Origin: a virus | Taxonomy: Duplodnaviria; Heunggongvirae; Uroviricota; Caudoviricetes | Virus record (IMG/VR): IMGVR_UViG_3300012665_001805 | Length of the DNA stretch: 64,000 nucleotides | Reading direction: 5' to 3' (one strand) | Shown here: piece after piece, positions 13,801 through 53,931 of the stretch | Numbering within the stretch: position 1 is the stretch's first letter | How the letters are laid out: each line of letters opens with the position of its first letter | Made by a program: the position numbers and the translations under genes | Notes under the pieces: model-generated | Database searches by the model: none | Told to the model about the DNA's origin: nothing | The model's input: only the letters and a program-made list of their open reading frames with translations

Positions 13801-13810
13801 CATTTTATTG

Positions 13811-13884: not shown

Positions 13885-13893
13885 ATTTATAGC

Positions 13894-13913: not shown

Positions 13914-13924
13914 GTTTTCTTCTG

Positions 13925-13996
13925 AGCTCCGTACCAGATTCGAACTGATTTCTCTTGATTACAAGTCAAGCGCATCGCCAACAATGCTTACAGAGC
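13925..13996 (-). tRNA. tRNA-Thr (TGT)
   Basis: anticodon arm CTTGA-CTTGTAA-TCAAG; T-arm ATCAG-TTCGAAT-CTGGT. Confidence 0.6.
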
Positions 13997-18757: not shown

Positions 18758-18759
18758 TC

Positions 18760-20272: not shown

Positions 20273-20446
20273 AGTACATTTTTATCATTTATTAAAATCA
20301 TTCTACCATCTTCAGTAGTTAACTTAGTAAATTGACCTTGTTTGATATACTCAGATCTAATATTTTCAAAGGTTCGTTTTTCACCACCTACAAAGTGGAT
20401 TATTTGAGTTACTACTTTACCTTGTTTTTTAATACTAGATTGTAAA

Positions 20447-22605: not shown

Positions 22606-22606
22606 A

Positions 22607-23827: not shown

Positions 23828-23828
23828 T

Positions 23829-24188
23829 TTAAATGTTTATATTTTTTATACCTGTATTTCTTTCTAAATTTATAGCGAATGCTGTTTCTTTTCCATCTGG
23901 TTTAAGATCATTAACTAAATAACGAGCTCCTCCACCTACACCCATGATTAATTGGTCATAGAATATCCCAGCATGTCTTAATTGTTTTTCAGTAACTTTC
24001 CTCATAGATTCTTTTCTTCCAGTAAGAAGAATAATATTATAACCTTTTCGTTCCCATTCAGATAATTTTGAAATAGTACAATCTAATAAAGTCATTTTAT
24101 GGGACGGCAATGTTGCTATTGGTGGTGGGGTATGGGTAACTAAAGTTCCATCAATATCACAAATAATTGTTTTAGGTCTCGTATCCAT
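23829..24188 (-). CDS. HAD-superfamily phosphatase (small, GmhB-like)
   Basis: motif I IICDIDGTLV; 119 aa. Confidence 0.55.
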   Translation of the reverse strand: MDTRPKTIICDIDGTLVTHTPPPIATLPSHKMTLLDCTISKLSEWERKGYNIILLTGRKESMRKVTEKQLRHAGIFYDQLIMGVGGGARYLVNDLKPDGKETAFAINLERNTGIKNINI

Positions 24189-26282: not shown

Positions 26283-27820
26283 GATTTTAAGTTTTTGTAT
26301 AAATTATATTTACCGAAATTAAATAAAAATGTACTAAATGGATATTCATGAAGTGGAGCCATATTTATCCAAACTATAGAAGTAAGAACTTTTACTTTTC
26401 TCAAATCAAAATTATTATTCTCTATGAAGGAATGTAAAACTCCTCTACATTCATTTAATTTACTATTTATTAGAATATAACAATCCTCTTTTGAGGATCC
26501 AAATAAGTTTTTATTTACTATATCATGATTGATAGTTAAATTGTGATTTAATTTAGCTAAATCATAGTATAAATCTCCAACTTCTAAATCATTAGCAAAA
26601 TCTTGTCTCCAATCTATAAGTTTAAATCCATCTTGGGTTTCAATAACGTTATCTAAAATAAAATCACCGTGGAATTGGGATGGAATACCATCACATAACC
26701 AATCAATATTTATCTGATCAATTAAATCATATATTGAAGGGATTAATTCACCATTAATGTATTCTGGTTTATCATTATCTGAATTAAGGTATTGATGGAT
26801 TCGTTTTTTGGTTTTAGAGATATAGAAATCATAACATTTGGTTTGAAAATCTACATCCTCTTTTTTAACCCATAAATTATCAGATGACCAATTTAAAAAT
26901 GTTATAAATTTACTTCTATTAACAGATTTAGAAAATAAATTTCCTTCTGCTTTTTTATATTTGTAAAAATTTTCAGTTGAACCTATCATATCAGGTACTA
27001 AACCTTTTAACTTATTAGCTCGAGTTACTCTATTGTTATTAATTGTTGAATTAGAGAAAAATTTAATTACAAAATCATCAAAGAAAAATATAGATTCATC
27101 TACTTTATCTAAAACTTCAATACTAGAATGAAATGCTTTTCTGGTTTTACTTAGTTCGGATGTGTTTCCGATATCAAACCAATTAGATCCATTTGTTTTT
27201 CTATTAGTAAATTTAACTTCAGACAACATATTATTTATAGCATGTACATCTGAGGTGTCTTCATGTCCACTATAAATAAGTTTTTCAAGTTGATAGAAGA
27301 ATAATTCAAAATCTTTTATTCCGGCTATTCCAACATATGAAAAATCAAAATTTAATTCACCTTTTTCATTTATCTTGATTAACTTATCAGCATCTAAATG
27401 TAATGTTCTGTATTGGGCTGAATCTTCTTTATGTGAACTCACAACATAATTGTAAGATGGATATTCAGGATGATAATTAGTCATTATCGTATCTGAAGCA
27501 TGGAACATAAATGGGGAGTTTATATAGTGTTTGCATTGTAGGAGAGAATATCCTAAACTACTACCTTCACCTTTATATTTATCTATTTCAACAAATGTAA
27601 AATTTCTATCAGGGTAAGCTAATTCAATAAATTGTTTAACATGAGATCCAAAATGTCCTAAAGTTATAATAAATTGAGTATTAACGGGGTAAGACTCAAT
27701 AATATAGGATATTGCGGGTTTGTCTGTTACTCTGATTAAGCATTTATTAGTATAATCTGTTAGTTGCCCTAATCTGCTACCTAAACCACTTGTTGTGATT
27801 AATACTTTATACTCTTCCAT
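26279..27820 (-). CDS. bifunctional sugar-phosphate nucleotidyltransferase / kinase (LicC-LicA-like)
   Basis: N-terminal TSGLGSRLG (GxGxRL NTP-transferase motif); C-terminal HGDFILDNVI..DW (APH/choline-kinase Brenner motif). Confidence 0.7.
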   Translation of the reverse strand: MEEYKVLITTSGLGSRLGQLTDYTNKCLIRVTDKPAISYIIESYPVNTQFIITLGHFGSHVKQFIELAYPDRNFTFVEIDKYKGEGSSLGYSLLQCKHYINSPFMFHASDTIMTNYHPEYPSYNYVVSSHKEDSAQYRTLHLDADKLIKINEKGELNFDFSYVGIAGIKDFELFFYQLEKLIYSGHEDTSDVHAINNMLSEVKFTNRKTNGSNWFDIGNTSELSKTRKAFHSSIEVLDKVDESIFFFDDFVIKFFSNSTINNNRVTRANKLKGLVPDMIGSTENFYKYKKAEGNLFSKSVNRSKFITFLNWSSDNLWVKKEDVDFQTKCYDFYISKTKKRIHQYLNSDNDKPEYINGELIPSIYDLIDQINIDWLCDGIPSQFHGDFILDNVIETQDGFKLIDWRQDFANDLEVGDLYYDLAKLNHNLTINHDIVNKNLFGSSKEDCYILINSKLNECRGVLHSFIENNNFDLRKVKVLTSIVWINMAPLHEYPFSTFLFNFGKYNLYKNLKS

Positions 27821-28151
27821 AGTTATCTTCTAATCGTACAATATCATCTTCTCCAAAATACTCACCTAATTGAACTTCAATAAAGATTAAATCTTCAATT
27901 CCTGTATTTTTGATTTGGTGTTTAGCTTTTAAAGGGATATTTATGATTGATCCTAAAGAAATTGGAAATATTTCATCATCCAATTTAAGTTCTCCACTAC
28001 CTTGGATTATAACCCAAACTTCTTTCCTTTTAAAATGATATTGATAACTAGGAGCTTGACCTGGTTTAATAATAATTTGTTTGACTTTACATAATGGGCT
28101 ATCTAATAAATTTTCAAATTCGCCCCAAGGTCTTTGTTCTTTATAATTCAT
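27807..28151 (-). CDS. cupin-fold protein (sugar isomerase/epimerase-like)
   Basis: 114 aa small barrel, G-x5-H-x-H-like pattern (YQYHFKRKEVWVIIQGSG). Confidence 0.45.
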   Translation of the reverse strand: MNYKEQRPWGEFENLLDSPLCKVKQIIIKPGQAPSYQYHFKRKEVWVIIQGSGELKLDDEIFPISLGSIINIPLKAKHQIKNTGIEDLIFIEVQLGEYFGEDDIVRLEDNYGRV

Positions 28152-28771
28152 AACGTATTGTAATAACTGTTTTGTTTTTCTTGTTTGTCTATTGTTTTTG
28201 GATGATATAAAGCAAAATATTCTACATCTGGTAACATAGTATATGTTTTAAATCCATCTAATCGCTCATGTACTTTATTTACCCATTTGATTTCGGGTAC
28301 ATTTCTCCAAATACGCCATTGAAAATCAGGCCAATTAACCCATCCAGTATCGGTTACATTCCATCCCCATTTTGCGATATGTTCGGGAGTTAAACCTTCA
28401 ACTGTATTTACTCGAGGAACTAGATAAATGTCCATTTCAGGATTAAGTTCTATAATTTCGGGTAATGCTTGAATTAAATCTTCTGATGGGTATTCATCAG
28501 CATCGATTTGAAAGATATAATCCCCATTGCACAGACTGGTTAATTTATTTTTCCAGTCTGCGAAATGTTTCTCAAATTTTCCTTTATGCCATACAAATTC
28601 TCCATTTGTAGAATGTGAACGAAGGAAGGCCTCGATTTCAGGATCACCATTTGCTTCATCATATAAAATCACTATATTGTCTTGTATACGTTTGTGATTA
28701 AGCAAAAAATGCACTAAACGTTGAATTTCTTTAAATTCATTACAGACTGTGATGGCATAACTTATTTTCAT
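28148..28771 (-). CDS. family-2-like glycosyltransferase
   Basis: ITVCNE...ILYDEANGD and DxD (QIDADEY). Confidence 0.5.
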   Translation of the reverse strand: MKISYAITVCNEFKEIQRLVHFLLNHKRIQDNIVILYDEANGDPEIEAFLRSHSTNGEFVWHKGKFEKHFADWKNKLTSLCNGDYIFQIDADEYPSEDLIQALPEIIELNPEMDIYLVPRVNTVEGLTPEHIAKWGWNVTDTGWVNWPDFQWRIWRNVPEIKWVNKVHERLDGFKTYTMLPDVEYFALYHPKTIDKQEKQNSYYNTL

Positions 28772-28776
28772 ATATC

Positions 28777-29241
28777 TTATTCAGGTAATATCCCAATATA
28801 TGAAAGAGCATCCATATAATCACGTTCTTCAAACGTTTTCATATTCTTCATATCCATTTTATATTTCATGAATTCTCCAGGTTTGCCGGGGATTGGATGT
28901 TTTTTCTGGTCTTTTTTAGGGATTTCGATTGCTCTAACAGCAGCCCATCTCCAATTTAAAGCATTTGTACCGTTAGCAAATACCATACCTTTATCTTCAA
29001 CATTAATAGTATTTGGTAACCAAATCAATCCTGTTTTAGTATCAGTCCAAGCTAAATCTTTATACAACTCAGGTAATGTTTCCATTTGTTGTTTATAGAA
29101 TTCATGGTCTTCAGTCATAAATGAGTTAGTCCAGAATCCACATGAAATACTCATGTAAGTGTAAATTTCAGGGGCAACTTGTACTTTATAGCACAAGTCA
29201 CCTCCAGATTTAGGGCAATTTATAATTTCTTCGTGTTGCAT
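28777..29241 (-). CDS. hypothetical protein
   Basis: 154 aa. Confidence 0.3.
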   Translation of the reverse strand: MQHEEIINCPKSGGDLCYKVQVAPEIYTYMSISCGFWTNSFMTEDHEFYKQQMETLPELYKDLAWTDTKTGLIWLPNTINVEDKGMVFANGTNALNWRWAAVRAIEIPKKDQKKHPIPGKPGEFMKYKMDMKNMKTFEERDYMDALSYIGILPE

Positions 29242-30530
29242 TATTCTACTGGTTTTAGTTTTGGTAGTTCAATTTTTTTCAATTTAGGTAATTGCAATTG
29301 AACTTGTTTTGGAAATTCAGGAATTTTATTTGTAAATACTTCATCCAATTTAGCTTTCATAGCTTCAAATGAGAATTTAGTTCTACTTTGGAAACCTTGA
29401 CGCTTTGCATTGTCAGTATAGTTTTTATAATTTTCAAATACATCTTTTAAGTAATGACCTACATTTCCATGATCTACACTAAACCATTCTGCATCTGCTA
29501 ATAACATATTATTTGCAGCTGATGGGTGTACTTTAGTCAGTATACCTGGTAGAAGTGTTACAAATTCTGGGTTTAAGTAATCTGTATGACCACTCCAATT
29601 TGTTGTAATTAGTGGTTTGTTTGTTAATGAGAACTCAAGTAATGGTCGACCAAATCCTTCTCCTTTAGTTAAGTTAATCATTGCTTTAACCTTAGAGTGA
29701 TTATAAATCTCATTCATCTCAGCATCAGTAAATTCACCATGTAACAAATATACATTTGGTAAGTTGTTTGAATTAACTGTATCTTTAATCATTTGGATAC
29801 GTCTAATCAATTCATCTCTATCCATATAAGACGAACCTACTTGTGATGTTTTTAGGATTAATGCTGGTTTTTTGCTTTTATTTTTAAACGTTTCATAAAA
29901 CGCTTTTACCAACAAACCTACATTTTTTCTATCTTCACCTAATTGTCCTTGCATCCAGTGACCTACAAACAAATAAGCAAATTCTTCTTTTACATTAGAT
30001 AAATCAAATGTTGATTTTACTGGTTTATATACATCCGTATTAGCACCTTCAAAAATAACTTCACCATCACCTTTCCATTCAATATATCCTACTGTTTGGT
30101 TTGTTTGTTGATCACGTTTTTCAAATTTACTATCTTTTAATACTTTAATAGTATGTTCAGATGAACCTAAAATCAAATTCATACGTTCACAACCTTCAAC
30201 CCATTCTGCAGGGGCAATTGTTGTTTCAATACCTGCGGTACATCCAATGTTATATTTTCCAATTGGTTGGAATTCATTTGGAACTGTAATCTGCATCCAA
30301 ATTTCTGGTTGGGATGGTAATTGTGGGGAACTTAATAAATGTTTTACTAAAAATTCCCATTCAGGATTATCTTTAATAAATCCTTTAGGAGTAGCACCCC
30401 ATCGTTGAGGTAAAACTTTTACTTCATATTTATCTAATTCAATAATCGCTTTAACGATATCGCGAGAACGTGCTCCATAACCTGAATAGGTATCAATGGG
30501 GCAGCTTATTACAAAAGTTGGTTTACTCAT
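29241..30530 (-). CDS. GT-B fold glycosyltransferase (GT4-like)
   Basis: C-terminal TKGEGFGRPLLEFSLTNKPLITTNWSG = E-x7-E GT4 motif. Confidence 0.7.
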   Translation of the reverse strand: MSKPTFVISCPIDTYSGYGARSRDIVKAIIELDKYEVKVLPQRWGATPKGFIKDNPEWEFLVKHLLSSPQLPSQPEIWMQITVPNEFQPIGKYNIGCTAGIETTIAPAEWVEGCERMNLILGSSEHTIKVLKDSKFEKRDQQTNQTVGYIEWKGDGEVIFEGANTDVYKPVKSTFDLSNVKEEFAYLFVGHWMQGQLGEDRKNVGLLVKAFYETFKNKSKKPALILKTSQVGSSYMDRDELIRRIQMIKDTVNSNNLPNVYLLHGEFTDAEMNEIYNHSKVKAMINLTKGEGFGRPLLEFSLTNKPLITTNWSGHTDYLNPEFVTLLPGILTKVHPSAANNMLLADAEWFSVDHGNVGHYLKDVFENYKNYTDNAKRQGFQSRTKFSFEAMKAKLDEVFTNKIPEFPKQVQLQLPKLKKIELPKLKPVE

Positions 30531-30539
30531 AACTATTTT

Positions 30540-31979
30540 TTAATATACAAATTTGTGATTAATTGTTGGTTCTTTAACGTCATTAACGTTGATTAACTCA
30601 TATTTTTCTCGCGGAATCCACGTGTTAAATAATTGATCTATCGCCATAATTGCTTTAATTCCCATATCTTCTGCTGTAAAACCTACGTCATTAATAGCCC
30701 AATGTCTACCTGTTTGACCAAGTTCTTTACGTTCTGCTCTATCCAAAGCATATACTTTACCAATTTGAACAGCTGCATCTTCTGCATTACATCTATCGTC
30801 CCAAATATATGGAGTTTTAGGAGAACCTTGCATTGAACGGTTAGTTGGGAATACTGGGAATGCCCATACACCATGATTTTTATATCGTCCTGTATGGTTT
30901 GAAGGGATTTCTGGAGTTGGTGTGTACCAATTTCCAAATTCATCTTCAAATCCCATTTGATCTTGCATACCACCTGTTACGTTAGCGATAATAACAGTTC
31001 CTGCTAAAATTGCTTCTGTTAATGATAGACCCCATCCTTCATTTGATGTTAATAAGATTTGAGCATCTGCAATATTATACAATTGATTCAATTGTTTAGT
31101 ATCTAATTTATTTTGAGAGAAATAAATAGCATTTGGGTAATCAGGGAATAATACTTTACGTACTGCTTCTAAATCAGTTCCATGTTCACTTACTATCTCA
31201 GTATGCATAATCATAGCACATTTAGCTGCTTTTTCTTTAGGTAATGTATCTAAGAAAATTTTAAAGGCAAGCATTGTATCAGGAATTTGTTTACGTCTGA
31301 TGTTTCTTGAATTGAAAAATACAACAAAATCTTTTTCTTTACCTCCAAATAAAGTAGATTTGAATTGCTCAAGTTCTTTCAATTCATCTTCTTTTTCAAT
31401 TGGGTAATACATTTCATGATTTAAACCATGGGGAACGTATTCAATGATTTTTTTACCTCGTTTTTCATCCAAAACCAATTCATTGATTAATCGTGTTTGT
31501 TTTGAAATTGCTAACAATGCATCACATGACTCATAAAATGCTTTGTTATACAATGGAGCTGGGTAGTCATCCCAAATATTTAAATAAATAATTGGTGTTG
31601 TTTTTCTAATTTCATTTTCAATCATGAATAACCACTCAAAGTATCTTGGATCTGTAATCAACATGATTGCATCTGGTTTTTCCAATTCAATCAATTGTCT
31701 AATTAAATCAGCATCACCATATCCATCTACTGGGTATAAAAATACAGATGAATCTTCTAATCCTGTATTAGTGTTGGTATCTCCACTTAAATCAAAACGT
31801 TTACCTTTCTCAGGGTGATTTATTGCTCCAGCAACGTTTACCCAATTAAAATGTTGGGCTGTGTTTAAAACTAATTCGCGTGCTACAGTCGCTACACCTG
31901 AGTGTACTCGAATATCATCACAAATTAATAGGATTTTTTTCCTCTCATTCTGAGGTAGGTACTTAAAACTTGAATTCAT
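30540..31979 (-). CDS. GT-B fold glycosyltransferase (GT4-like)
   Basis: TSNEGWGLSLTEAILAGTVIIANVTGG. Confidence 0.65.
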   Translation of the reverse strand: MNSSFKYLPQNERKKILLICDDIRVHSGVATVARELVLNTAQHFNWVNVAGAINHPEKGKRFDLSGDTNTNTGLEDSSVFLYPVDGYGDADLIRQLIELEKPDAIMLITDPRYFEWLFMIENEIRKTTPIIYLNIWDDYPAPLYNKAFYESCDALLAISKQTRLINELVLDEKRGKKIIEYVPHGLNHEMYYPIEKEDELKELEQFKSTLFGGKEKDFVVFFNSRNIRRKQIPDTMLAFKIFLDTLPKEKAAKCAMIMHTEIVSEHGTDLEAVRKVLFPDYPNAIYFSQNKLDTKQLNQLYNIADAQILLTSNEGWGLSLTEAILAGTVIIANVTGGMQDQMGFEDEFGNWYTPTPEIPSNHTGRYKNHGVWAFPVFPTNRSMQGSPKTPYIWDDRCNAEDAAVQIGKVYALDRAERKELGQTGRHWAINDVGFTAEDMGIKAIMAIDQLFNTWIPREKYELINVNDVKEPTINHKFVY

Positions 31980-40690: not shown

Positions 40691-43420
40691 CTAGTTGAAT
40701 GTAAAGAACTTTGCTTTAAACGGGTTCAAATTGAAATCCCAACCAATATCATTGTATACGGTTTCTAATTTGTTTCGCATTACACTATCAAATAAACCAT
40801 CTCTATCAATATATTTGTTGATTAATTCAGTAATGTCATCTGGATCATTGTAGCCGTTGTATCCTATAGCATCAATCTGGTATGGGTTTGGTTTTAGATT
40901 GGCTATATACATTTTGTCTCCAATTGTAAATTCAGGGTATTTGACATTAAGTTTCTTGTATCTCAAGAAATCATTGTATCTAATAGCTGCTTTAGTGTTT
41001 ACTGGGCATTTCAATTTTAGTTTAGTAAACAATTCACCTGCCATAGGTCTACGTTCAATATATTCACCCATTTTTTTCAATCCAGTTGGTTTCAATAGCT
41101 TAATCCATTCAATTTCACCTACCATTTGTTTGAATTCCATTACGTCTTTATCTATTTCGGTTTTGGGTTTACCAAATAGGATATTTTTGATCAGGTTTTC
41201 TCCAAAGTTTCTAAATAGAGGTGGGAAGTTGGATTTCATAATATCTAATCCCTTCATCTCTAATTCCTCGATTTCAACACCTTCTTTATTTACAATATAC
41301 ATTGCATAACGGCGTTTACCAGACCAATACGCTTTTTCAGCGATTACCTCTTGTTTGAGTACAAAGTGGTGTGCTTCGGTCATATTAAACAGATCTTGCG
41401 ATATATTGTTTAGATTATCGTTTGCTACTTGTTGTAGTTCCTCAGTCAAGACAAGCAATCGTTTAATTTTCTCTTCACGATCATCATATTTTAAATCTGG
41501 GTTTCTGTGTTTTAACAAGTCCGTTAGTTCCATATAAAGTGAATCGGTATCAGAGGCGATTACAAATGTTCTAGGGTCAATATCTAATTGTTCTGAAATG
41601 TAGTCGTTTACAAATGCAATAGATTCTTTAGTAAGTCTCTGTCCGCTATTGGTAATGGCTGCAGAGCATATTTTGAATCCATCTGTAAAACGCCATGAAT
41701 TAATTGCATACGTACCATATAATGCGTTTTGAAGGATTTTGAATGCCATTTGATACAAGTCATACAATTTGTAGTTTACCCAATCCTCTGATTTACCTGC
41801 TGTTTTCTTAAGTGCTCTATAGTGCTCTCGTTTATCGAACCAATCCTCTAGTACCTCACAAGCTATACTCTTTTGATCCGTTCTATAAAATGCTCCACTG
41901 GCTGAGATAGTCCAATTATTATCTTCAATTAATTTGATTAAAGCACCTACAGCTATTTTAGCATCTTTTAGAGCATAAGTAGATTTGACTAGTTTTTGTA
42001 TATGTAGTTTTTCCTCGGGGTCAAGTTTCTTTAACTGCTCGAGTGAATTATATTGCTCGTAATTGTTTTTTGTAACAATTCTACCTACTAGTGTTTCAAC
42101 ACCCAAATTCAATGATTTGATAATTGAAGGATATAGTGAGGTAAAGTCAAGGTCACTTACATCTGAATATAAGCCAGGGATAGGATCAAGTAAATAACCA
42201 CCTGCGTAACTATCTTTTTTACGGATTGTTTTAGGGTAACGATTTAGATATTTTCCGGACATTGTTTTTACTACAATATTGTCTTTCTCAAAGCTATATA
42301 CAGTACCTTCAATTGTTGGAGTACCTCGTTGATGTATAACGTGATCACCGAGTTCAAGCTCTCTAATGGATGGATTCGTTGTAGTTGGCTTGTTTGGTGC
42401 AATAATATTCTTACGTTTTAAATACGTTAAAATCGCTCCCTCATTCAATGCTGTATTGTAATAGATGGATTCATATGGTGTATGACATAAATGGGAAATC
42501 AAAATAGTCAATTCAATGAACTTTAATTTCTCCTCTAATACCTCAATGATCTCAACATCTCGAATGTTATAGTCAATAAACTTAATTGGGTCTTCTTTAA
42601 ATAAAGTGTCTAAGCTACCATTATACTCAATTTTACCTAACTTAGCATATTTCAAACCAATATCACCTAATTTATATGATGGTTCTTCCTTAGCAATATA
42701 TTTTTTTAACAGCAACATATAATCCAAACTGTTAACAAGTCCAATTCTAATTGGATCGTTTGGTTGAGATAATGTTTCTGTAATTTTACCTACTGGGGAT
42801 AAGCGGTATACTTCATCTCCTAAACGTTTTTGGATTCTATAATACAAATATGGGATATCGAAGAAATCACTATTATAACCTGCAACGATTGTAGGATCCA
42901 TTTGTTCCCATTTGCTTAAGAACTTACGTAATAAAGTGTTTTCATCAGGACAAGATACAATGACTTTACCATCTTGATTCATATCCTCAATCGCACCTGC
43001 TTTATCTAAGATAAAACATATTTTTTCCTTAGTGGAAACATCAATTAAAGCAATAGCTGTAACCTCAGCATTTGCTTCTCTAATTGTTTGTGGTGTAAGG
43101 GCTCCTAGGATTTCGATCTCAATATCCAGATAAACTGTATTGTGATATGAAGGCATATCATCTGATTGGTAATATAGATCTCTTAAGATTACTAGTTCAC
43201 GATCAATATCCTTTTCATAAATTGTAGGATCTTTTCTATCATATTTGCCTTGGAATGGAGAACATCTATCACCAAATAGTGTTTCAAATTCTCCATCCTC
43301 ATCGAGCTTATATAGGGTAGGCCAATATTGGAATTTGTGTATTCCTTTTTTATCGTCCCGTAGATAGTAATGGTACTGATCTTCACCTGGTAACCTGTTA
43401 TAGAAAACAGATTGGTACAT
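40691..43420 (-). CDS. family B DNA polymerase with 3'-5' exonuclease domain
   Basis: Exo I YLDIEIE, motif A DFTSLYPSII, motif C IASDTDSLY; 909 aa. Confidence 0.95.
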   Translation of the reverse strand: MYQSVFYNRLPGEDQYHYYLRDDKKGIHKFQYWPTLYKLDEDGEFETLFGDRCSPFQGKYDRKDPTIYEKDIDRELVILRDLYYQSDDMPSYHNTVYLDIEIEILGALTPQTIREANAEVTAIALIDVSTKEKICFILDKAGAIEDMNQDGKVIVSCPDENTLLRKFLSKWEQMDPTIVAGYNSDFFDIPYLYYRIQKRLGDEVYRLSPVGKITETLSQPNDPIRIGLVNSLDYMLLLKKYIAKEEPSYKLGDIGLKYAKLGKIEYNGSLDTLFKEDPIKFIDYNIRDVEIIEVLEEKLKFIELTILISHLCHTPYESIYYNTALNEGAILTYLKRKNIIAPNKPTTTNPSIRELELGDHVIHQRGTPTIEGTVYSFEKDNIVVKTMSGKYLNRYPKTIRKKDSYAGGYLLDPIPGLYSDVSDLDFTSLYPSIIKSLNLGVETLVGRIVTKNNYEQYNSLEQLKKLDPEEKLHIQKLVKSTYALKDAKIAVGALIKLIEDNNWTISASGAFYRTDQKSIACEVLEDWFDKREHYRALKKTAGKSEDWVNYKLYDLYQMAFKILQNALYGTYAINSWRFTDGFKICSAAITNSGQRLTKESIAFVNDYISEQLDIDPRTFVIASDTDSLYMELTDLLKHRNPDLKYDDREEKIKRLLVLTEELQQVANDNLNNISQDLFNMTEAHHFVLKQEVIAEKAYWSGKRRYAMYIVNKEGVEIEELEMKGLDIMKSNFPPLFRNFGENLIKNILFGKPKTEIDKDVMEFKQMVGEIEWIKLLKPTGLKKMGEYIERRPMAGELFTKLKLKCPVNTKAAIRYNDFLRYKKLNVKYPEFTIGDKMYIANLKPNPYQIDAIGYNGYNDPDDITELINKYIDRDGLFDSVMRNKLETVYNDIGWDFNLNPFKAKFFTFN

Positions 43421-43713: not shown

Positions 43714-44394
43714 TTATTTATTTAAAAATTGTGTTAGATTTGGTCTAAAGTAATTAATGTTTTTCATTACCTTTCTGTCACGCGTTCTATAGACGATATA
43801 ATATCTACCAACCTTCTCATAGTGACATGCTTCCTCTTGCTCGGAAGAACGTACTCTAACGGTTTCTTGTGCCTCTTCTTCGCTTGTACAAGCTTTGCTA
43901 AGATTGGACGCTTGTACTTCTTGATACGCGGGCCATACTTTATTCTTAAGACCATGTAGCATAGCACCGTTACCCAATGAAACATAGGTAATGTCACATA
44001 GAGCATCAAGAACTTCAACAATGTTTCCCGTTTCACAAGCGTGTTTGTATTCTTCAAGTTCTTCCAAAATAAAATTATAGACAAACATCCACTCCTTCTC
44101 ATCGGGAATGACCGGGGTATAATTATTTGGTTTCCCCATAATTGCATTAAATTCTTCAACTTCTGATACAAATGGAACATAGGCGTCTTTCATTTGGGAG
44201 ATTTCTTGATTTAATCGAGACCATTCTTTAGTTACATCATTTCCAAGTTCAATTTTAGACATCATAGAAAGATCTACTACTTGACTTGTTAATAAATTAA
44301 TTAACTCTGTTTGTTTTTGTTCTAGGGTCATAGGGATTGCTTTTTTAGCTAGGAATGGAAGTATTTTATTTTTATATGCTTTAAAAGTTCTCAT
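43714..44394 (-). CDS. MazG-like nucleoside triphosphate pyrophosphohydrolase (all-alpha NTP-PPase)
   Basis: EELEEYKHA ... EVLDALCDI E-x2-E ... D metal-binding pattern. Confidence 0.5.
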   Translation of the reverse strand: MRTFKAYKNKILPFLAKKAIPMTLEQKQTELINLLTSQVVDLSMMSKIELGNDVTKEWSRLNQEISQMKDAYVPFVSEVEEFNAIMGKPNNYTPVIPDEKEWMFVYNFILEELEEYKHACETGNIVEVLDALCDITYVSLGNGAMLHGLKNKVWPAYQEVQASNLSKACTSEEEAQETVRVRSSEQEEACHYEKVGRYYIVYRTRDRKVMKNINYFRPNLTQFLNK

Positions 44395-45089
44395 ATCTGA
44401 TGTCCTCCATTATTAATTTTTAATGAATCAAAGAATTCTTTACGTGCTTGATTATTATTTTCCATAAACACACCTGATGCTTTAGTTGTAACCATTGAAG
44501 CACCTTGGTGTTTAACACCTCTACAAGATACACAATTGTGGGTTGCTACTACTGTAACAATTACACCTCTGTTTTTCTCACAAATTTTATCTACTGCTTG
44601 GTGAATAGCTGCTGTTAATTGTTCTTGGATAGCACCTCTACGACCAAAATGTTCTACAATTCGGTTCAATTTAGATAATCCAATTACTCGACCTTCATCT
44701 CCAACGATATAACCAATATGAACTACTCCTCCAATTGTTTGGTGGTGGTGAGAACACATTGAAGTTAATGGGATGTTTCTCTCAATTACGATACCATTAT
44801 ATCCGTCTGAAGGAAATGAAGTAATATCTGACATTGCTGTATATCTACCTGAAAATAAATCGAATACATAAGCTTTAGCTACACGTCTAGGTGTATTATC
44901 GGAGTTTGGATCGTTTTCCCAATCAACACCTAATGCTGTAAGGAATTCACCATACGCTTTTTCAGCTTTATCAACCATTTCCCATTTTTGTTCTTCGGTA
45001 AGGGGGAACCCAGGTGCAACTCCATTCGCGAAACCTGTTTTAACACACTCTAAATCAGTGTGGTTTTTTCTACGTTTGTTTTCTGACAT
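44391..45089 (-). CDS. folE: GTP cyclohydrolase I (FolE)
   Basis: SMCSHHHQ (cf. SMCEHHL), VIGLSKLNRIVE, HQAV...RGV motifs. Confidence 0.9.
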   Translation of the reverse strand: MSENKRRKNHTDLECVKTGFANGVAPGFPLTEEQKWEMVDKAEKAYGEFLTALGVDWENDPNSDNTPRRVAKAYVFDLFSGRYTAMSDITSFPSDGYNGIVIERNIPLTSMCSHHHQTIGGVVHIGYIVGDEGRVIGLSKLNRIVEHFGRRGAIQEQLTAAIHQAVDKICEKNRGVIVTVVATHNCVSCRGVKHQGASMVTTKASGVFMENNNQARKEFFDSLKINNGGHQI

Positions 45090-45345: not shown

Positions 45346-45774
45346 TTAAATTTGTGTTGTTGCGTTATGAACGTCCAACTCAGCTTGAATTTCTTCAATT
45401 CTTGCTTCTAATGTTTGCACCATCGTATCAAGTTGGGCAATATTAATTTCTACTTCTTTTACAGATACTACTGAGCTGTATCGTGCTTCAGATTTTCCTT
45501 CTTCCGTTGGAATTTTTCTTAATTCCTTGATACGGTTTTTTAACTCAGCCATACGGAAAATCTTATCGTATACCGGAGCGTTTGCTAGATGGATTTTAGT
45601 TTTTAACTCTGTTAACTCTAAAGTTAACTCAACTGCTTTATCCAATGCTGCTTGCACCGAATAACGTCTAATATTCCCTTCTTCTTGGGAATTAAATTTT
45701 TGTGCAATTTGGTATTGCTTTTTTAGTTCAATAACTAATTTGTTTTTTTGCTTTAATGCTTGAGATACATTCAT
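45346..45774 (-). CDS. coiled-coil hypothetical protein
   Basis: 142 aa heptad-rich. Confidence 0.3.
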   Translation of the reverse strand: MNVSQALKQKNKLVIELKKQYQIAQKFNSQEEGNIRRYSVQAALDKAVELTLELTELKTKIHLANAPVYDKIFRMAELKNRIKELRKIPTEEGKSEARYSSVVSVKEVEINIAQLDTMVQTLEARIEEIQAELDVHNATTQI

Positions 45775-45822: not shown

Positions 45823-46317
45823 TTAGAGTGCGTAAATATAATCTAAATTACGCTCTTTTTTATTGTTATCCATCCCATAACCTACTACCCATTCATCTTG
45901 AATTATGAAACCATAATGTAAAGGATAATCAGGTATTGGAGAGATATCTCTAGTTAATAAAGTAACTACTTCTATTGTCTTAGGGTTGAAACTAGATAAA
46001 TGATTTACAATAGAATCTAAAGTAGTTCCAGAATCATAAAAATCATCTACTACATATACCGTTTTTCCTTCAATATCTGCTTCAATATCTTTTGTAATGT
46101 GAACTACACCTTGATCTTGACCATTATATGATTTAGCTCTCATAAAATCAAATTCAACATCTGTTGACATGTTTCTTACTAAATCACTAAAGAACATAAC
46201 TCCACCATTTAATACACAAATCATTACAACATCATCATTTTCAGTGTGTTTAAAATCAATGGTGTGAGCCATTTCTGTTACTTTATCTTGGATTTGTTTA
46301 GATGTAAATAAAATCAT
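45823..46317 (-). CDS. hypoxanthine/guanine phosphoribosyltransferase-like PRTase
   Basis: PRPP motif VYVVDDFYDSGTTL; C-terminal WVVGYGMD...RNLDYIY (cf. Hpt FVVGYGLDYAERYRNLPYI). Confidence 0.8.
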   Translation of the reverse strand: MILFTSKQIQDKVTEMAHTIDFKHTENDDVVMICVLNGGVMFFSDLVRNMSTDVEFDFMRAKSYNGQDQGVVHITKDIEADIEGKTVYVVDDFYDSGTTLDSIVNHLSSFNPKTIEVVTLLTRDISPIPDYPLHYGFIIQDEWVVGYGMDNNKKERNLDYIYAL

Positions 46318-47099
46318 TATACTCCTCTTTTTGTATCAAATGCAATAATATGATCTCTACCTGTCATATTGTATCCTTTTTCAGCACACATATCAAATAC
46401 AAGTGGATACATTTTAATTAATTCCTCTCTAGTATCTCCTGCTGGCATGATATAGGTTTTATCTTTAGGGATCTCTAGAAATTGTCTAATATCTTCAATT
46501 TCATTTAGATTTTCCTCTGTACCATCCCATACTGGTTTAAAGTGGTAATCTGTGTGAAAGTCGATCATCGCAGCCATTGCACTCAAGTTCATTCTCAACT
46601 TGTTGTGTTGGTTGACCATCTTTTGATCCGTGATTGCACCCGATGGTGTAGGAGTACCCACAACGGGTACACTATTACTAAACTTAGGACTAAGAGATAT
46701 AAGCCCAATAGGATAGTCAGTGTCAAGAAAATGCGACCCTTCAGTTTCAATAGTGATAAGAATACCTCTTTCATGAGCAAAATGTGTCAATTCGTTAACC
46801 AATTTTGGATGCATTGTAGGTGAACCTCCAGTTAACATCATTTCTTTGATGTGTGGATTTTCATCATAAATTTTGATGATATCATTAAAGGTAAACGTAC
46901 CTTTTTCTGGGTGGATACTTGTGTACCAAGAATCACACCATCCGCCTTCACCAAAGAAGCAACGGTGAGTACAACCTGTTGTGCGAACTGCAATCGTTGG
47001 ACGTCCAAAACGAGATCCCTCACTTTGAACGCAACGATATAGTTCTATAATAGGTAAAACTTTGTTATAATCTTCTATTCTTCCTAAAGTAGATTCCAT
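46317..47099 (-). CDS. queE: 7-carboxy-7-deazaguanine synthase (QueE, radical SAM)
   Basis: PIIELYRCVQSEGSRFGRPTIAVRTTGCTHRC...WCDS aligns with B. subtilis QueE N-terminus; unusual Cx3Cx7C spacing. Confidence 0.7.
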   Translation of the reverse strand: MESTLGRIEDYNKVLPIIELYRCVQSEGSRFGRPTIAVRTTGCTHRCFFGEGGWCDSWYTSIHPEKGTFTFNDIIKIYDENPHIKEMMLTGGSPTMHPKLVNELTHFAHERGILITIETEGSHFLDTDYPIGLISLSPKFSNSVPVVGTPTPSGAITDQKMVNQHNKLRMNLSAMAAMIDFHTDYHFKPVWDGTEENLNEIEDIRQFLEIPKDKTYIMPAGDTREELIKMYPLVFDMCAEKGYNMTGRDHIIAFDTKRGV

Positions 47100-47332
47100 T
47101 TTTCTTTTACTTGTGCTTCTGTTAAAACTCCGATTGACTTGTCTGCTTCTTGTCCGTCTTTCAAGAAAACTAACATTGGTACGCTTCGTACGCTATATTG
47201 AGCAGATAATGTTGGATTTTCATCCACGTTGATGAAACGTACAGGCATTGAATTACTTACGCGTTCCATAATAGGTTTGAAATTTCTGCATGGTCCACAC
47301 CATGGGGCACTAAAATAAAGAATTTCTTTCAT
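47084..47332 (-). CDS. thioredoxin
   Basis: WCGPC active site, 82 aa. Confidence 0.85.
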   Translation of the reverse strand: MKEILYFSAPWCGPCRNFKPIMERVSNSMPVRFINVDENPTLSAQYSVRSVPMLVFLKDGQEADKSIGVLTEAQVKEKWNLL

Positions 47333-47389: not shown

Positions 47390-47866
47390 TTATCCTTCAT
47401 AAATACTAGAGTTATTGTCGTTTTCGAAACATTCTACTTTGATTACTCGGCAACGTCCCGCGTCTGTTTTAGATAGTACTTCATTAAAATGATCAAATAC
47501 TAACTTAGCACATGATTCTGCGCCCATTTTGTCCATTACTCGAAGTGCACATAAACCTTCCATTGCTGCTGATTCGAAAAAGTCTAAGTATGGATCATCC
47601 TTCTCGATCAACAATGTGTGATCCCACATATAGTTCATCCAAGATTTCAAACCATTACCTTTAGGTGCATCTTTGAACCCACCGTAATCAACGATCCAGT
47701 TCATGTCATCTAATTGATTTTCCTCTAGTGGTTCGTTTGAAGCAAACCATACTTTGAATTTCAAAGCATAACCATGTAACAATTCACAATGTGAGTGAGA
47801 TGCTCTCCATTGTCTAAGTGCTACTGAATAATTTTCAAATAATTTTGTACTAATATATCTACCCAT
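47390..47866 (-). CDS. queD: 6-carboxy-5,6,7,8-tetrahydropterin synthase (QueD)
   Basis: SHSHCELLHGY (cf. E. coli HKCGRLHGH), WDHTLL (cf. LDHHYL). Confidence 0.7.
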   Translation of the reverse strand: MGRYISTKLFENYSVALRQWRASHSHCELLHGYALKFKVWFASNEPLEENQLDDMNWIVDYGGFKDAPKGNGLKSWMNYMWDHTLLIEKDDPYLDFFESAAMEGLCALRVMDKMGAESCAKLVFDHFNEVLSKTDAGRCRVIKVECFENDNNSSIYEG

Positions 47867-48656: not shown

Positions 48657-49556
48657 TTAATTATTATGAGTTTCTAATACTTTTGTTACTTCTTCTACTA
48701 CATGTTCCCATGTTACGGGGCCATTCTCGTTTGCATACTTTGCAGGATCAGGACGACCTAATTTAATAAAGGCCTCTACACGCTCCACGGAACTTGCTGA
48801 TTTGTAATCAGAATACCATTCACCGAATTTAGTTCTAAGTGTTTCTTCTACTCGAGATGAAGCAGGTGCATATTCAATATAAATTGGTTTGTAAGATGTA
48901 TTTGTACGTGAATATACTTCCTCGAATTTAAGACCTAATTTATTACATAATCCTTCTCCATCTTGTAAGATAGTAAATTTATCACCTTCAAGATATGGTG
49001 TAAAGTAACCTACTTTTTCAGAACCCCAATTTCCAATTCTGAATGCTGCATCATCGGCATCACGGAATTCTTGTCTGCAATCTGGATAAATAGCATGATC
49101 ACCAGCGTGAATACCCATTGCAATATCACATTGTTCACCTGTTTTATCAGCGATTGAAAGTGCAACTGCTTGAGTAATTGAAGCAAAGATTTTGTTACGA
49201 TTAGGAACAACTGTTGCTTTCATATTTTCTTCAGCATAATGTCCTTCAGGTACTTCATCTCCACCTGTTACTAGTGCTGAATTAAGCAGATCTACTAGTC
49301 CATTTAATTGGATTTGGCGGTAGTTAACATGAGGGTATACTTCAATAAACCCATCAGGAAGTTTATTATGCGCATACATTCGTGTAGGATTATCATTTAA
49401 ATAATCTACTAATGATTGAGCGCGTTCAAGCTCAACTCTATGTTTTTGACCATAGTCAAAACTCAATGCTGTTACTGTATCGTACTCTTTCAAGCAACGA
49501 AGTAACAATGTAGAGGAGTCCATCCCTCCGCTAAGACTAACTACTACGTGTTTCAT
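48657..49556 (-). CDS. queC: 7-cyano-7-deazaguanine synthase-like PP-loop ATPase (QueC-like, extended C-terminus)
   Basis: N-terminal VVSLSGGMDSST PP-loop; 299 aa vs ~230 typical, lacks obvious C-terminal Zn Cys cluster. Confidence 0.7.
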   Translation of the reverse strand: MKHVVVSLSGGMDSSTLLLRCLKEYDTVTALSFDYGQKHRVELERAQSLVDYLNDNPTRMYAHNKLPDGFIEVYPHVNYRQIQLNGLVDLLNSALVTGGDEVPEGHYAEENMKATVVPNRNKIFASITQAVALSIADKTGEQCDIAMGIHAGDHAIYPDCRQEFRDADDAAFRIGNWGSEKVGYFTPYLEGDKFTILQDGEGLCNKLGLKFEEVYSRTNTSYKPIYIEYAPASSRVEETLRTKFGEWYSDYKSASSVERVEAFIKLGRPDPAKYANENGPVTWEHVVEEVTKVLETHNN

Positions 49557-49864: not shown

Positions 49865-50662
49865 TTAGAGCCCATTTATTTCACGAAACATACTAACATT
49901 CCAATCAATAAGATCTTCATTAATGAAATCAATACTTACATCTTGGTATTTATTCATATTTGCAATTGGTTTCATATGTAATCCCATTTTTGTATAAGGC
50001 ATTTCACCAATTGCAGCCATAATTGGATTTGATGTATCAATTGATTCAATACAAGGAATATTTTTATACATTCCAAATTCAATAGGTGATGCAGTTCCAA
50101 GCAAATGTACTCGATCATGTTGAGTTAACATTTTATCTTTATATAAACCACTCAAAACCATGTAACGACCAATTGCTTTACCCAAATCTACATTTGGATG
50201 CGGGCACATTTCACTATGGTAGTATTCAGCACCATATGAAAATGCAATTTTCTTGTATCCAAAATCACGATATGCTTGAACACATAAAAGTGCTTCATGT
50301 GATGATTTTGCTTGCACTACAGCTACTTTAATGGTATTGGATGGCATTTCAACACCTGCCCATTGTTTTGCATTTCTAACTGAAGAGGCATAATCTTCCC
50401 ATACATCTGGTACGATGAATTCGTTTGGTTTGATTTCATTTACCCAATGCATTAGGCGTTCTGAATTATAGGCTTCACCTAGTTCATGTAATGAATTATC
50501 CATTACAATATATCGTCCCATTTTCTTTGATTCATAGAAGAAATTACGGTATTCTTCATTTTCATCCATTAAGTGAGGTAAACAATAATCATAATCATTG
50601 AAAGCTCTACTCTGTTCTAAGAGGCAAAATGGTACCTCGTGGCTAATTTTTACTTTTTTCAT
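49865..50662 (-). CDS. tRNA-guanine-transglycosylase-superfamily protein, DpdA-like (candidate DNA 7-deazaguanine transglycosylase)
   Basis: 265 aa; VMDNSLHEL and RVHLLGTASP resemble TGT DSGG and HLxGxG motifs; heads the deazaguanine cluster. Confidence 0.5.
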   Translation of the reverse strand: MKKVKISHEVPFCLLEQSRAFNDYDYCLPHLMDENEEYRNFFYESKKMGRYIVMDNSLHELGEAYNSERLMHWVNEIKPNEFIVPDVWEDYASSVRNAKQWAGVEMPSNTIKVAVVQAKSSHEALLCVQAYRDFGYKKIAFSYGAEYYHSEMCPHPNVDLGKAIGRYMVLSGLYKDKMLTQHDRVHLLGTASPIEFGMYKNIPCIESIDTSNPIMAAIGEMPYTKMGLHMKPIANMNKYQDVSIDFINEDLIDWNVSMFREINGL

Positions 50663-52028: not shown

Positions 52029-52466
52029 TTATTTTCCAAGTTCTCCTTTAGTTTTTTCTAATAAAAGATTACGGATTCGTTCTTTTGCTTTCTCTCCTAA
52101 TGGTATTGAATTTCCACCTTCATCAATTTGAACAAAGGTAATATTTGTTTTCAGTACAAGATCTTGCTTACCTGTATAAACATTATGTGCTCTTGCCTCC
52201 ATATAAAGAGTCATAGAAGTATTACCTACTTTTACGGGATATCCATAAATTTTTAATAGTTGGGATTCTTTAGCAGGACGCTCAAAATTACATTGATCAA
52301 TTGATACTGTTACCATTCTTGGTGTATCACATAATTGCATTGAATAACCTGCAGCTGAAGCATCTATCCAGCTTAGTAGTTTACCGCCAAATAAGTTACC
52401 ATGAAAACCTAAATCGCTTTTTTTAATTGGGTGTGTGTTTAATAATTCCATTCTGTTTTTATCCAT
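52029..52466 (-). CDS. hotdog-fold acyl-CoA thioesterase (YbgC/4HBT-like)
   Basis: 145 aa; HGNLFGGKLLSWIDASAA pattern. Confidence 0.55.
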   Translation of the reverse strand: MDKNRMELLNTHPIKKSDLGFHGNLFGGKLLSWIDASAAGYSMQLCDTPRMVTVSIDQCNFERPAKESQLLKIYGYPVKVGNTSMTLYMEARAHNVYTGKQDLVLKTNITFVQIDEGGNSIPLGEKAKERIRNLLLEKTKGELGK

Positions 52467-52834
52467 TTATTGTCGTAATTATATTTAAAGCTTCCTATAT
52501 ATTGTTTATTCCATTCATTTGGGTTAATTAAAGATAAAAAAACTTTATCATCATTCCCACAGTAAAGGTGATAAATTTCACCAATTACCGGTTCGAAACT
52601 AAATTTTGATTGATAAACCAAATCGTTCCAATTATATTCATCAATTAGTTTTTGATATTCTGCTTTTAATTCATCAAATTTTGATTGAAATTGTTTATTA
52701 ACTTTGTTAACTCTAATTTGTTTCCAAGCATCAATATTATCAACAATAATTGATGGAGCACCTACATTTGATCCATAAGGTAATATGTTGGGGTTATCAG
52801 CAACATTATCTGGTTTTTTATCAGTCATACTCAA
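52439..52834 (-). CDS. hypothetical protein
   Basis: 131 aa. Confidence 0.3.
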   Translation of the reverse strand: MSMTDKKPDNVADNPNILPYGSNVGAPSIIVDNIDAWKQIRVNKVNKQFQSKFDELKAEYQKLIDEYNWNDLVYQSKFSFEPVIGEIYHLYCGNDDKVFLSLINPNEWNKQYIGSFKYNYDNKWIKTEWNY

Positions 52835-53931
52835 TTGGATAGTGGTGCTTTAATATGTGGGTGTGATTCGTAATTGTTCATTGTAAAAAAGTCGGGTCTA
52901 AACTTTTCTATTTTTTCATCAAATGGAATAGGACCAACTAATTCTTCATCCATTAAGTAATGATATTCATCTAAACACCAAAGTTCAGGTAATTTCATTG
53001 GCTCTCTTGTGATTTGTTCTTTAGCTTGTTCAATATGATTTGAATATAAATGAACATCACCTAAATTTCCAATTAATTCATCAGGTATCATATTGACTTC
53101 TTTTGCTAAGATTGTAAGTAATAATCCATAAGAAGCAATGTTGAATGGTAAACCTAAGAATGTATCTACACTTCGTTGGTTCCACATTAGAGAGATTGCT
53201 CGTTTAGGAGTTGACTCTTTCCATATTTCCTCTAAAAAATAATTTTGTTTCAATTTAGTATACTCATCAGTATTTTTTTTAACCCAATTTATTCGTTCTT
53301 CCCAAGTCAATTCTCTTGTATAAACTTGAAATCCATAATGACAAGGTGGGAGAGTCATTTGGTCTAACTCACCTACATTCCAAGCATTGACCATCAATCG
53401 TCTTGAGTCTGGGTTGGTTTTAAGGTCGTTGATTATGTTTTGGATTTGGTCTATGCCGGCCAATCCTTCAAATTCTCTTTCTGAACTATTCCAATCTCTC
53501 CATTGCTTACCATAAATTGGACCTAAATCACCAAACTCTTTTTCATGCCACTTATCTAAACAAATTGCCTTAGCTAACTCCTCCTGTGTAAGCTTTCTAG
53601 GTACCTCAAATGGTGTAGTTTTACTCATATGCTCATACCACTTTTCAAACGCTTTATAAGCATCACCATCCCAAATATGGCAATTATTTTCAACTAAATA
53701 CTTAATATTTGTATCGCCACGCAAGAACCAAATCAATTCGGTTGCAATTGTTTTAAATGGCATTTTTTTGGTTGTTAGTAAAGGAAACCCCTCAGACATC
53801 TTGTGTCTAATTTGTCTCCCAAATACTGAGATAGTACCTGTTCCAGTTCTATCTTGTTTTTGGACTCCATTGTCTAGGATATCCTTTAGAAGTCTAAGGT
53901 AATCATGTTCTATATTGTTTACAAGTCCCAT
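52831..53931 (-). CDS. thyA: thymidylate synthase ThyA homolog with two ~45-aa insertions
   Basis: DRTGTGT, ELIWFLRGDTN, PPCHYGFQVY (catalytic Cys), DTFLGLPFNIASY (Asn retained), GDVHLYSNH; 366 aa vs 264. Confidence 0.85.
   Translation of the reverse strand: MGLVNNIEHDYLRLLKDILDNGVQKQDRTGTGTISVFGRQIRHKMSEGFPLLTTKKMPFKTIATELIWFLRGDTNIKYLVENNCHIWDGDAYKAFEKWYEHMSKTTPFEVPRKLTQEELAKAICLDKWHEKEFGDLGPIYGKQWRDWNSSEREFEGLAGIDQIQNIINDLKTNPDSRRLMVNAWNVGELDQMTLPPCHYGFQVYTRELTWEERINWVKKNTDEYTKLKQNYFLEEIWKESTPKRAISLMWNQRSVDTFLGLPFNIASYGLLLTILAKEVNMIPDELIGNLGDVHLYSNHIEQAKEQITREPMKLPELWCLDEYHYLMDEELVGPIPFDEKIEKFRPDFFTMNNYESHPHIKAPLSN

Follow-up and report, generated by a model that had tools for sequence, protein, structure and literature searches.

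We analyzed a window of 64,000 nt, the whole stretch of DNA under study, from the IMG/VR virus record IMGVR_UViG_3300012665_001805, a large uncultured phage whose relatives lie on contigs of 112-182 kb. Judging from its residues and its neighbours, the open reading frame (ORF) at 45823-46317 on the minus strand on balance probably encodes an active 6-oxopurine phosphoribosyltransferase (PRTase) of the Hpt type, as an accessory module of a DpdA3-type cluster for 7-deazaguanine modification of DNA. We give a probability of about 0.55 to the reading that this enzyme recaptures guanine in the service of the deazaguanine pathway. The family of the enzyme, its fold, its conserved catalytic residues, its membership in the cluster and the repeated association of PRTases with FolE and the que genes were observed directly, while we infer the physiological role and a substrate that is guanine or hypoxanthine rather than a deazaguanine.

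Family, fold and conserved residues

The ORF begins with ATG and encodes 164 amino acids (aa), its end coordinate including the stop codon. The first-pass annotation, made by a model from the sequence, had described the product as a purine PRTase similar to hypoxanthine phosphoribosyltransferases (HPRTs), and this identity was borne out by Pfam, by solved structures in the Protein Data Bank (PDB) and by a structural model. The protein matches PF00156 with an E-value of 2.4e-27 (95.6 bits compared to a cut-off of 26.3), and its top NCBIfam model is the HGPRTase equivalog TIGR01203, with 148.6 bits, which is 1.4 under the curated cut-off of 150. Sequence comparison with the PDB placed it nearest to HPRTs of bacteria and protozoa (E ~1e-30), and matches of this strength are not to be expected by chance. 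The AlphaFold (AF2) model, calculated from an alignment of 100 sequences, reached a predicted local distance difference test (pLDDT) score of 95.9 and a predicted template modelling (pTM) score of 0.90. Searching with this model in Foldseek gave a template modelling (TM) score of 0.93 to 4rqb, 2geb and 5knu, with 34-38% identity to solved HPRTs, and the top 50 matches were HPRT/HGPRT chains without exception (TMq 0.85-0.93).

The loop predicted to bind 5-phosphoribosyl-1-pyrophosphate (PRPP), VYVVDDFYDSGTTL, spans residues 87-100 (46018-46059, minus strand) and follows the pattern of a hydrophobic run, two acidic residues and xxD-[ST]-G-x-T; alignments to 4qri, 3o7m and 1hgx locate in it the acidic pair D91-D92 and Asp95. 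The purine-binding C-terminal part comprises residues 123-162 (45832-45951, minus strand) with Arg123, Trp143, V144-G146-Y147-G148, Asp150 and Arg156. It includes the motifs VVGYGMD (residues 144-150, 45868-45888) and RNLDYIY (residues 156-162, 45832-45852), which, like the PRPP loop, had already been quoted in the first-pass annotation and were found in place on the minus strand. Alignment A2, composed of 18 members of the subfamily of the window HPRT, shows no variation at D91, D95 and G97 and almost none at D92 and T99. Asp95 is the counterpart of human Asp137, the base acting on the purine N7, and the flexible-loop residues Ser63-Tyr64 are present and invariant in A2 as well.

Regarding the purine contacts more closely, we observed that Arg123 stands at the position of the 6-oxo-binding Lys (human Lys165, T. 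foetus Lys134) and Trp143 at the purine-stacking position Phe186/Tyr156. The canonical pair of Lys and Phe/Tyr is absent from the window HPRT, and R123 and W143 are invariant in A2. Among the 150 nearest representatives, 93 carry Lys and Phe and 29 carry Arg and Trp; both replacements are conservative and can be seen in further HPRT-like proteins, and Arg at the Lys165 position is also found in long HPRT fusion proteins, which are presumably cellular. We considered the Arg123/Trp143 pair as a decisive sign of function on a 7-substituted base and dropped it, because the homologues P0139 (Lys/Phe) and P0138 (Arg/Phe) fill the same QueE-HPRT-FolE slot and because Arg occurs in the long fusion proteins. 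The signature is not required for this slot.

Bacterial Hpt enzymes (S. aureus 4RQB, T. tengcongensis 2GEB/1R3U, B. anthracis Hpt-2 3O7M, E. coli 5KNU) have the same type I PRT fold as the window HPRT (TM ~0.9, 34-38% identity), and the PRPP loop, the Ser-Tyr flexible loop, the catalytic Asp, the GYG-x-D purine loop and the C-terminal Arg are common to both. However, the window HPRT is shorter (164 aa) with no N-terminal extension, carries Arg for the O6-binding Lys and Trp for the stacking Phe, and has Asp-Asp in place of the Glu-Asp acidic pair and Phe-Tyr in place of Ile-Ile in the PRPP loop. Its gene lies in a phage DNA-modification cluster, whereas bacterial Hpt is a housekeeping salvage enzyme. 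On sequence grounds we classify the product as a divergent Hpt-family member of a phage-borne subfamily, ordinary in enzyme type.

Association with FolE and the que genes

Phage 7-deazaguanine modification has been described as the product of FolE, QueD, QueE and QueC together with a DpdA transglycosylase, and Cui et al. defined the DpdA3 subfamily and linked it to complete replacement of G (PMC10516641). The HPRT gene had been described as embedded in a deazaguanine cluster, and we indeed found FolE, QueE, QueD, QueC and a DpdA3 homologue around it, all on the minus strand. A DpdA3 homologue with phage-encoded FolE, QueD and QueE, here joined by QueC, characterizes a DpdA3-type cluster, and from these genes we predict that genomic G is replaced by a 7-deazaguanine in the window phage. 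The proposed translational coupling of HPRT to QueE also held: the QueE stop TAA (46319-46317) and the HPRT ATG (46317-46315) have the last A of the stop in common, which gives TAATG with a 1-nt overlap. A Shine-Dalgarno sequence GAGGAG, read from the sequence, lies within the 3' end of QueE at 46322-46327 (minus strand), 4 nt ahead of the ATG. A megablast search of the 7-kb cluster against GenBank phages gave no match, and the phage is known from metagenomes only.

A profile-guided scan of IMG/VR yielded at least 364 relatives of the Hpt type, and for the best 80 (42-82% identity) we analyzed the presence of que genes within 8 kb. They were found in 77 of the 80 loci, while the other 3 are truncated; 67 of the loci hold FolE, which in 55 of them lies at most 150 bp from the PRTase. 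In all twelve close IMG/VR relatives (69-82% identity) the HPRT gene is located immediately upstream of FolE or of a sporadic 142-aa ORF, and QueE stands upstream of HPRT wherever the contig extends that far. Among 1.84 billion representative proteins the nearest relatives are metagenomic, with 41-50% identity. For nine such clusters we inspected the contigs. Eight of these contigs are large, belong to phages and carry the HPRT in a que/radical-SAM cluster; FolE follows directly downstream of HPRT on seven, while P0125 (L086) has no FolE in the locus. P0134 (L252) is a canonical Lys/Phe HPRT on a phage-like contig of 193 kb. No que gene lies within 6 kb of it, and its neighbours are a lysozyme, an MmeI-type methyltransferase, a Dam methylase and RuvC. 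A tie to deazaguanine clusters is not shared by all phage HPRTs. Matches obtained by tblastn with HPRT in 'phage' records of Staphylococcus, Listeria, Enterococcus and Salmonella (29-37% identity, mostly short and unannotated) are probably host DNA and were left unused.

The same slot can be occupied by a PRTase of a different family. In Flavobacterium phage immuto 2-6A, QueE and FolE are separated by the gene for a 131-aa 'phosphoribosyl transferase' (in the order QueE ... PRTase ... FolE-MazG, within a DpdA3 cluster), of which the PRPP loop alone can be aligned to the window HPRT. This Gpt-type phage enzyme is closest to Sulfolobus GpT-1/2, to P. horikoshii 1VDM and to the xanthine-guanine phosphoribosyltransferase (XGPRT) of E. 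coli. The two types are interchangeable, as sister phages whose family B DNA polymerase (PolB) is 82-91% identical carry a Gpt/XGPRT-like PRTase of 131-140 aa beside FolE instead of the Hpt type. Our DpdA3-anchored IMG/VR set consists of 65 loci, and 36 clusters span the region from QueE to MazG/PolB. Seven of these 36 sister clusters hold the Hpt type, 13 the Gpt type and 16 no PRTase in the cluster, the last class having been checked within ~10 kb of DpdA3, which allows for a PRTase elsewhere in the genome, as in phiST. For the Gpt type we took the best 80 of at least 373 viral relatives; 75 are located in que clusters and the remaining five are cut at a contig end, and FolE was found within 150 bp of the PRTase in 59 of 70 loci. 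For both families together, que genes are present within 8 kb in 152 of 160 viral loci, the remaining 8 being truncated. Both PRTase types occur in window-like as well as in immuto-like architectures, the latter with DpdN, a P-loop kinase and QueF.

Among GenBank phages, the Gpt-type query also matched inside genes annotated as 'GTP cyclohydrolase I'. The proteins concerned have about 300 aa and consist of an N-terminal Gpt-like domain of ~115 aa, which keeps the motifs RGG, VDDIIDSGxT, KP and WVVFPWE, followed by a normal FolE domain. We found such PRTase-FolE fusions in 34 GenBank phage records, among them Pseudomonas PaMx25/NP1-like, Vibrio, Stenotrophomonas, Xanthomonas, Variovorax and Sphingomonas phages. 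In the gene maps of VpKK5 (gp32, L088:4998-5900), Stenotrophomonas phage ply2008005c (gp47, L089:4971-5864) and Sphingomonas phage MMDA13 (gp31, L090:4989-5876) the fusion lies beside QueD/QueE/QueC, and a queuine/queuosine tRNA-ribosyltransferase gene, labelled DpdA in the MMDA13 record, directly follows FolE. Like current annotation, Pfam at its gathering threshold reports FolE alone for these proteins, and the N-terminal domain of many phage 'GTP cyclohydrolase I' entries should be re-annotated. The fusions tie a purine PRTase to GTP cyclohydrolase I as the window cluster does, but with a Gpt-like domain rather than a separate Hpt gene. Unfused PRTases were seen in PA5oct (a Gpt-like gene directly upstream of a QueE-like gene), in Brevundimonas phage MaInes (FolE adjoining XPRT) and in phiST, whose Gpt-type PRTase is separated from the cluster by 18 kb and adjoins RNase H, with ribonucleotide reductase (RNR) nearby. 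In these GenBank phage searches neither PRTase matched the Campylobacter phage records, including CP220. Co-occurrence with DpdA/que clusters in relatives, which the first-pass annotation had named as a check on its proposal, was much stronger than anticipated, with 77 of 80 Hpt-type and 75 of 80 Gpt-type loci, and extends to the FolE fusions.

We found no PRTase in those published gene sets for phage 7-deazaguanine clusters that we consulted, the main text of PMC10516641 mentions none, and our literature search returned no publication linking a purine PRTase to such clusters. As far as we could find, it is new that phage deazaguanine systems have a PRTase module linked to FolE, the unannotated fusions included, that is widespread and was recruited repeatedly. 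Such clusters often contain a purine PRTase, recruited from two families and as a FolE-fused domain.

Possible roles of the enzyme

For the guanine recapture that we favour, the following steps can be envisaged. FolE, QueD, QueE and QueC would convert GTP into a free 7-deazaguanine base, either preQ0 (7-cyano-7-deazaguanine) or 7-amido-7-deazaguanine (ADG). DpdA3 would put that base in place of guanine, releasing one free guanine per exchange, the PRTase would join the freed guanine with PRPP to GMP, and host kinases would take GMP to GTP, the substrate of the neighbouring FolE. The sole base able to compete with the deazaguanine at the transglycosylase and to be re-inserted would in this way be cleared, and the loop would be closed, with one PRPP as the cost of each exchange and the guanine-nucleotide pool spared. 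The first-pass annotation had seen no evident use for a PRTase in DpdA-type systems; this needs revision, since each exchange frees one guanine and consumes one GTP and therefore leaves a clear place for a guanine PRTase. Two functions had been offered there: salvage of displaced guanine, which is now favoured, and conversion of a free 7-deazaguanine base into a nucleotide, which the comparative evidence makes less favoured.

Several observations point to an ordinary purine as the substrate. The predicted N7-directed Asp95 is kept, although 7-deazapurines have no N7, which favours guanine or hypoxanthine. Two unrelated families of 6-oxopurine PRTases would interchange freely only if an ordinary, common activity is needed, and their exchange between clusters favours the same conclusion. 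The constant partner of the PRTase, by adjacency and by fusion, is the GTP-consuming FolE and not QueC or DpdA. PRTases also occur whatever the end product of the pathway, namely formyl-preQ1 in immuto, the product of the QueC-only pathway in the window and that of phiST, and guanine and GTP are what these have in common; the modifications of immuto and phiST, including the formyl-preQ1 of immuto, are described in PMC10516641. Finally, the PRTase is dispensable, with 16 of 36 clusters having none and the CP220-type phages unmatched, while CP220 DNA is reported to be completely modified (PMC10516641). This fits a booster role that the Hpt/Gpt of the host could cover.

Other points weigh against guanine recapture. 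Sequence does not settle purine specificity, and the invariant Arg on the O6/N7 side and the stacking Trp might be an adaptation to a bulkier base with a 7-substituent. PRTases for 7-deazaguanines exist, as TubE uses 7-carboxy-7-deazaguanine (CDG) and ToyH has been proposed to act on preQ0 (PMC6112128), and the authors of the TubE study aligned it with the Sulfolobus GpT-2 family (4Z1O), which the Gpt-type phage enzyme matches best in the PDB. Furthermore, a MazG-like gene is kept beside the PRTase, PolB abuts the cluster and RNR lies upstream in the relatives L080, L082, L084 and L087, an arrangement that resembles nucleotide-level phage pathways. DpdA3 activity has never been shown in vitro or in E. 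coli (PMC10516641). GMP is also two kinase steps away from the FolE substrate, so that the fusion does not join strictly consecutive steps.

Several of these points also speak for a nucleotide-pool route, a tentative alternative that we hold to be rather unlikely. Here the PRTase would use PRPP to act on phage-made preQ0, ADG or CDG, kinases and RNR would lead on to 7-deaza-dGTP, the MazG-like enzyme would lower dGTP and PolB would incorporate the analogue, which would explain complete replacement of G. Besides the precedent of TubE and ToyH, the published alignment of TubE with the family that the Gpt-type enzyme matches best, the invariant Arg123 and Trp143 at the purine contacts and the retained MazG-like, PolB and RNR genes, this route is favoured by the 100% replacement in DpdA3 phages, by the fact that DpdA3 has not been reconstituted and by ADG nucleoside in the cytoplasm of CP220-infected cells (PMC10516641). 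However, the cluster retains a transglycosylase of the tRNA-guanine transglycosylase family that needs the free base, and a PRTase consuming this base would compete with it. The route would moreover require a new specificity in two unrelated families exchanged between near-identical clusters, with the N7-directed catalytic Asp invariant, with canonical Lys/Phe homologues in the same slot and with the same PRTase subfamilies in clusters that have different end products. An essential step should not be absent as often as in 16 of 36 clusters and in the unmatched Campylobacter phages, we found no phage nucleoside monophosphate (NMP) kinase in the cluster of the window, and the fusion partner is FolE, not QueC.

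We also regard it as unlikely that a PRTase of either family serves as the entry to a nucleotide-level route, in which 7-deaza-GMP would pass through the MazG-like enzyme, RNR and PolB with replacement taking place during replication, or that, as a variant, DpdA3 exchanges the base on (d)GMP made by MazG while the PRTase recycles guanine. If true, either of these two would overturn the view that phage 7-deazaguanine modifications are all post-replicative, and activation of a deazaguanine by the PRTase would mean a replicative route to 7-deazaguanine genomes. The Z-genome phages (PurZ/MazZ/DatZ) and other nucleotide-level pathways for phage DNA modification combine, in one cluster, a MazG-family pyrophosphohydrolase, a purine-nucleotide enzyme and the phage DNA polymerase. 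The window cluster has a similar combination but differs by the presence of the base-exchanging DpdA3.

ToyH (toyocamycin/sangivamycin) and TubE (tubercidin) of Streptomyces are the only known PRTases genuinely within a 7-deazaguanine pathway, and, as here, these type I PRTases are encoded beside FolE, QueD and QueE homologues. A context rule for such clusters comprises FolE/QueD/QueE together with GMP reductase, PurA/PurB-like and HAD or Nudix genes and no transglycosylase (bioRxiv 10.64898/2026.04.15.718813). The ToyH/TubE clusters have no transglycosylase and carry GMP-reductase, PurA/PurB-like and phosphatase tailoring genes, whereas the window cluster is the opposite on both counts, with DpdA3 present and tailoring genes absent. 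Our comparison of ToyH and TubE with the phage PRTases is one of context and description only, and the published alignment of TubE is with the Gpt-2 type, not the Hpt type. The tubE cloning primer ATGAGCGCGGAACAGGTCG was searched in 185,579 genomes and gave 43 chance matches, no PRTase among them.

A generic auxiliary metabolic gene, in which HPRT boosts purine salvage from degraded host nucleic acid and its placement reflects a grouping of nucleotide metabolism, is in our view improbable. The P0134 HPRT without a que gene within 6 kb, the phiST PRTase by RNase H and near RNR at 18 kb from the cluster, and the dispensability of the PRTase are consistent with it. Yet random placement among replication genes would not yield the observed pattern: que genes lie within 8 kb in 152 of 160 loci with the other 8 truncated, the PRTase abuts FolE in most, 34 GenBank phage records have the PRTase domain fused to FolE, and PA5oct and MaInes again put a PRTase beside QueE or FolE. 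A non-catalytic sensor or regulator with a PRT fold, PyrR- or PurR-like and binding PRPP, guanine or GMP, is very improbable: PRT folds are reused as regulators and the protein gives weak matches to PyrR and PurR models (E 1e-5 to 6e-3), but every catalytic motif of active HPRTs is intact and conserved, there is no DNA- or RNA-binding extension, and the HGPRTase equivalog scores 148.6 bits against ~25 bits for PyrR.

Guanine recapture, to return to the reading that we prefer, offers a testable idea of how DpdA3 phages might handle the displaced guanine, the large GTP demand and 100% replacement. A guanine-scavenging PRTase with PRPP may be the missing ingredient in the failed DpdA3 reconstitutions.

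Neighbouring genes and further content of the window

In the direction of transcription the cluster reads DpdA3, an 83-aa ORF, QueC, three small ORFs, QueD, thioredoxin, QueE, HPRT, a 142-aa ORF, FolE, a MazG-like gene and PolB. The homologue of the DpdA3-type DNA guanine transglycosylase (49865-50662, minus strand like all genes of the cluster; phrog_19058, E 4e-39) shows 34% identity by tblastn to the DpdA of immuto 2-6A and to CP220 gp056 and 22% to phiST gp042, and the 83-aa ORF between it and QueC is conserved. The QueC-like protein (48657-49556; PF06508, E 7e-35) has 299 aa compared to ~220-230 for bacterial QueC, with the Pfam match split round an insertion and a C-terminal extension. 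We found no homologues of QueF, DpdN or DpdM in the window, and the final base may be either preQ0 or ADG. QueD, a 6-carboxytetrahydropterin synthase, lies at 47390-47866 (PF01242, E 1e-10; phrog_2389, E 3e-30). A thioredoxin gene at 47084-47332 (PF00085, E 3e-17) overlaps the start of QueE and is kept in relatives, and QueE itself is located at 46317-47099 (phrog_2076, E 6e-49; 68% identity to immuto 2-6A QueE). Among very similar phages (L017-L079) QueD occurs in two forms, either 91-98% or ~40% identical to the window QueD, and the thioredoxin gene stands before or after QueE, depending on the phage (examples of the QueD/thioredoxin variation are L018 compared to L021 and L024 compared to L032). 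The cluster is therefore a mosaic of swappable cassettes, beyond the PRTase slot.

The 142-aa ORF between HPRT and FolE (45346-45774, no Pfam or PHROG match) was found in L013/L043, L024, L032, L098 and L099 only and does not belong to the core of the cluster. Its identity reaches 97-100% in L013 and L024, compared to 59-71% for the HPRT beside it, which suggests that the ORF is a recently spread, possibly mobile insert. FolE, the GTP cyclohydrolase I and first enzyme of the pathway, lies at 44391-45089 (PF01227, E 3e-44). It overlaps by 4 nt (ATGA) with the gene for a MazG/PRA-PH-like nucleoside-triphosphate pyrophosphohydrolase (43714-44394; PF01503, E 1e-8; phrog_671, E 9e-26), whose product is 76% identical to immuto gp208. 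The MazG-like gene adjoins FolE or the PRTase in most related loci. Directly downstream of the cluster lies PolB (40691-43420; Pfam DNA_pol_B on orthologues), which is 86-98% identical in relatives with synteny kept. Sigma-70 promoter-like sites are not enriched (30 found, 37 expected), and we make no claim on operon boundaries.

Neither among the small ORFs of the cluster nor in the rest of the window did we find a phage NMP kinase or other nucleotide enzyme. Homologues of the P-loop 'kinase' that adjoins DpdA3 in immuto and in CP220 are absent from the window and from the window-type clusters. In immuto-like clusters this neighbour of DpdA3 is a P-loop protein annotated as 'thymidylate kinase' (Pfam AAA_28), for example immuto gp203 (L001:12900-13424). 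It is homologous to CP220 gp057 (L015:8813-9355) and gp006 (L016:418-951) with E ~1e-60, one of which adjoins the CP220 DpdA3, and in phiST an AAA_18 protein lies beside DpdA3.

The window also encodes 25 tRNA genes, GroEL, a clamp loader and glycosyltransferases. The tRNA array at 10985-13996 (minus strand) has a GC content of 0.37-0.41 compared to ~0.32 around it and includes four tRNAs with GUN anticodons (Asp, Asn, His, Tyr), which are the bacterial queuosine substrates. A thymidylate-synthase-family protein at 52831-53931 (minus strand) has 366 aa, ~100 aa beyond the Pfam profile, and may be a second, pyrimidine-directed modification enzyme or a hydroxymethylase-like enzyme; a 4HBT thioesterase (52029-52466) and a DUF2452 protein (52439-52834) adjoin its gene, and ThyA-like genes of 291-423 aa are found near the que clusters of relatives. 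A sugar-metabolism block at 18080-31979 (minus strand) contains a DegT-type aminotransferase, an RmlD-like reductase, a methyltransferase, one GT2 and two GT1 glycosyltransferases and a DUF707 protein.

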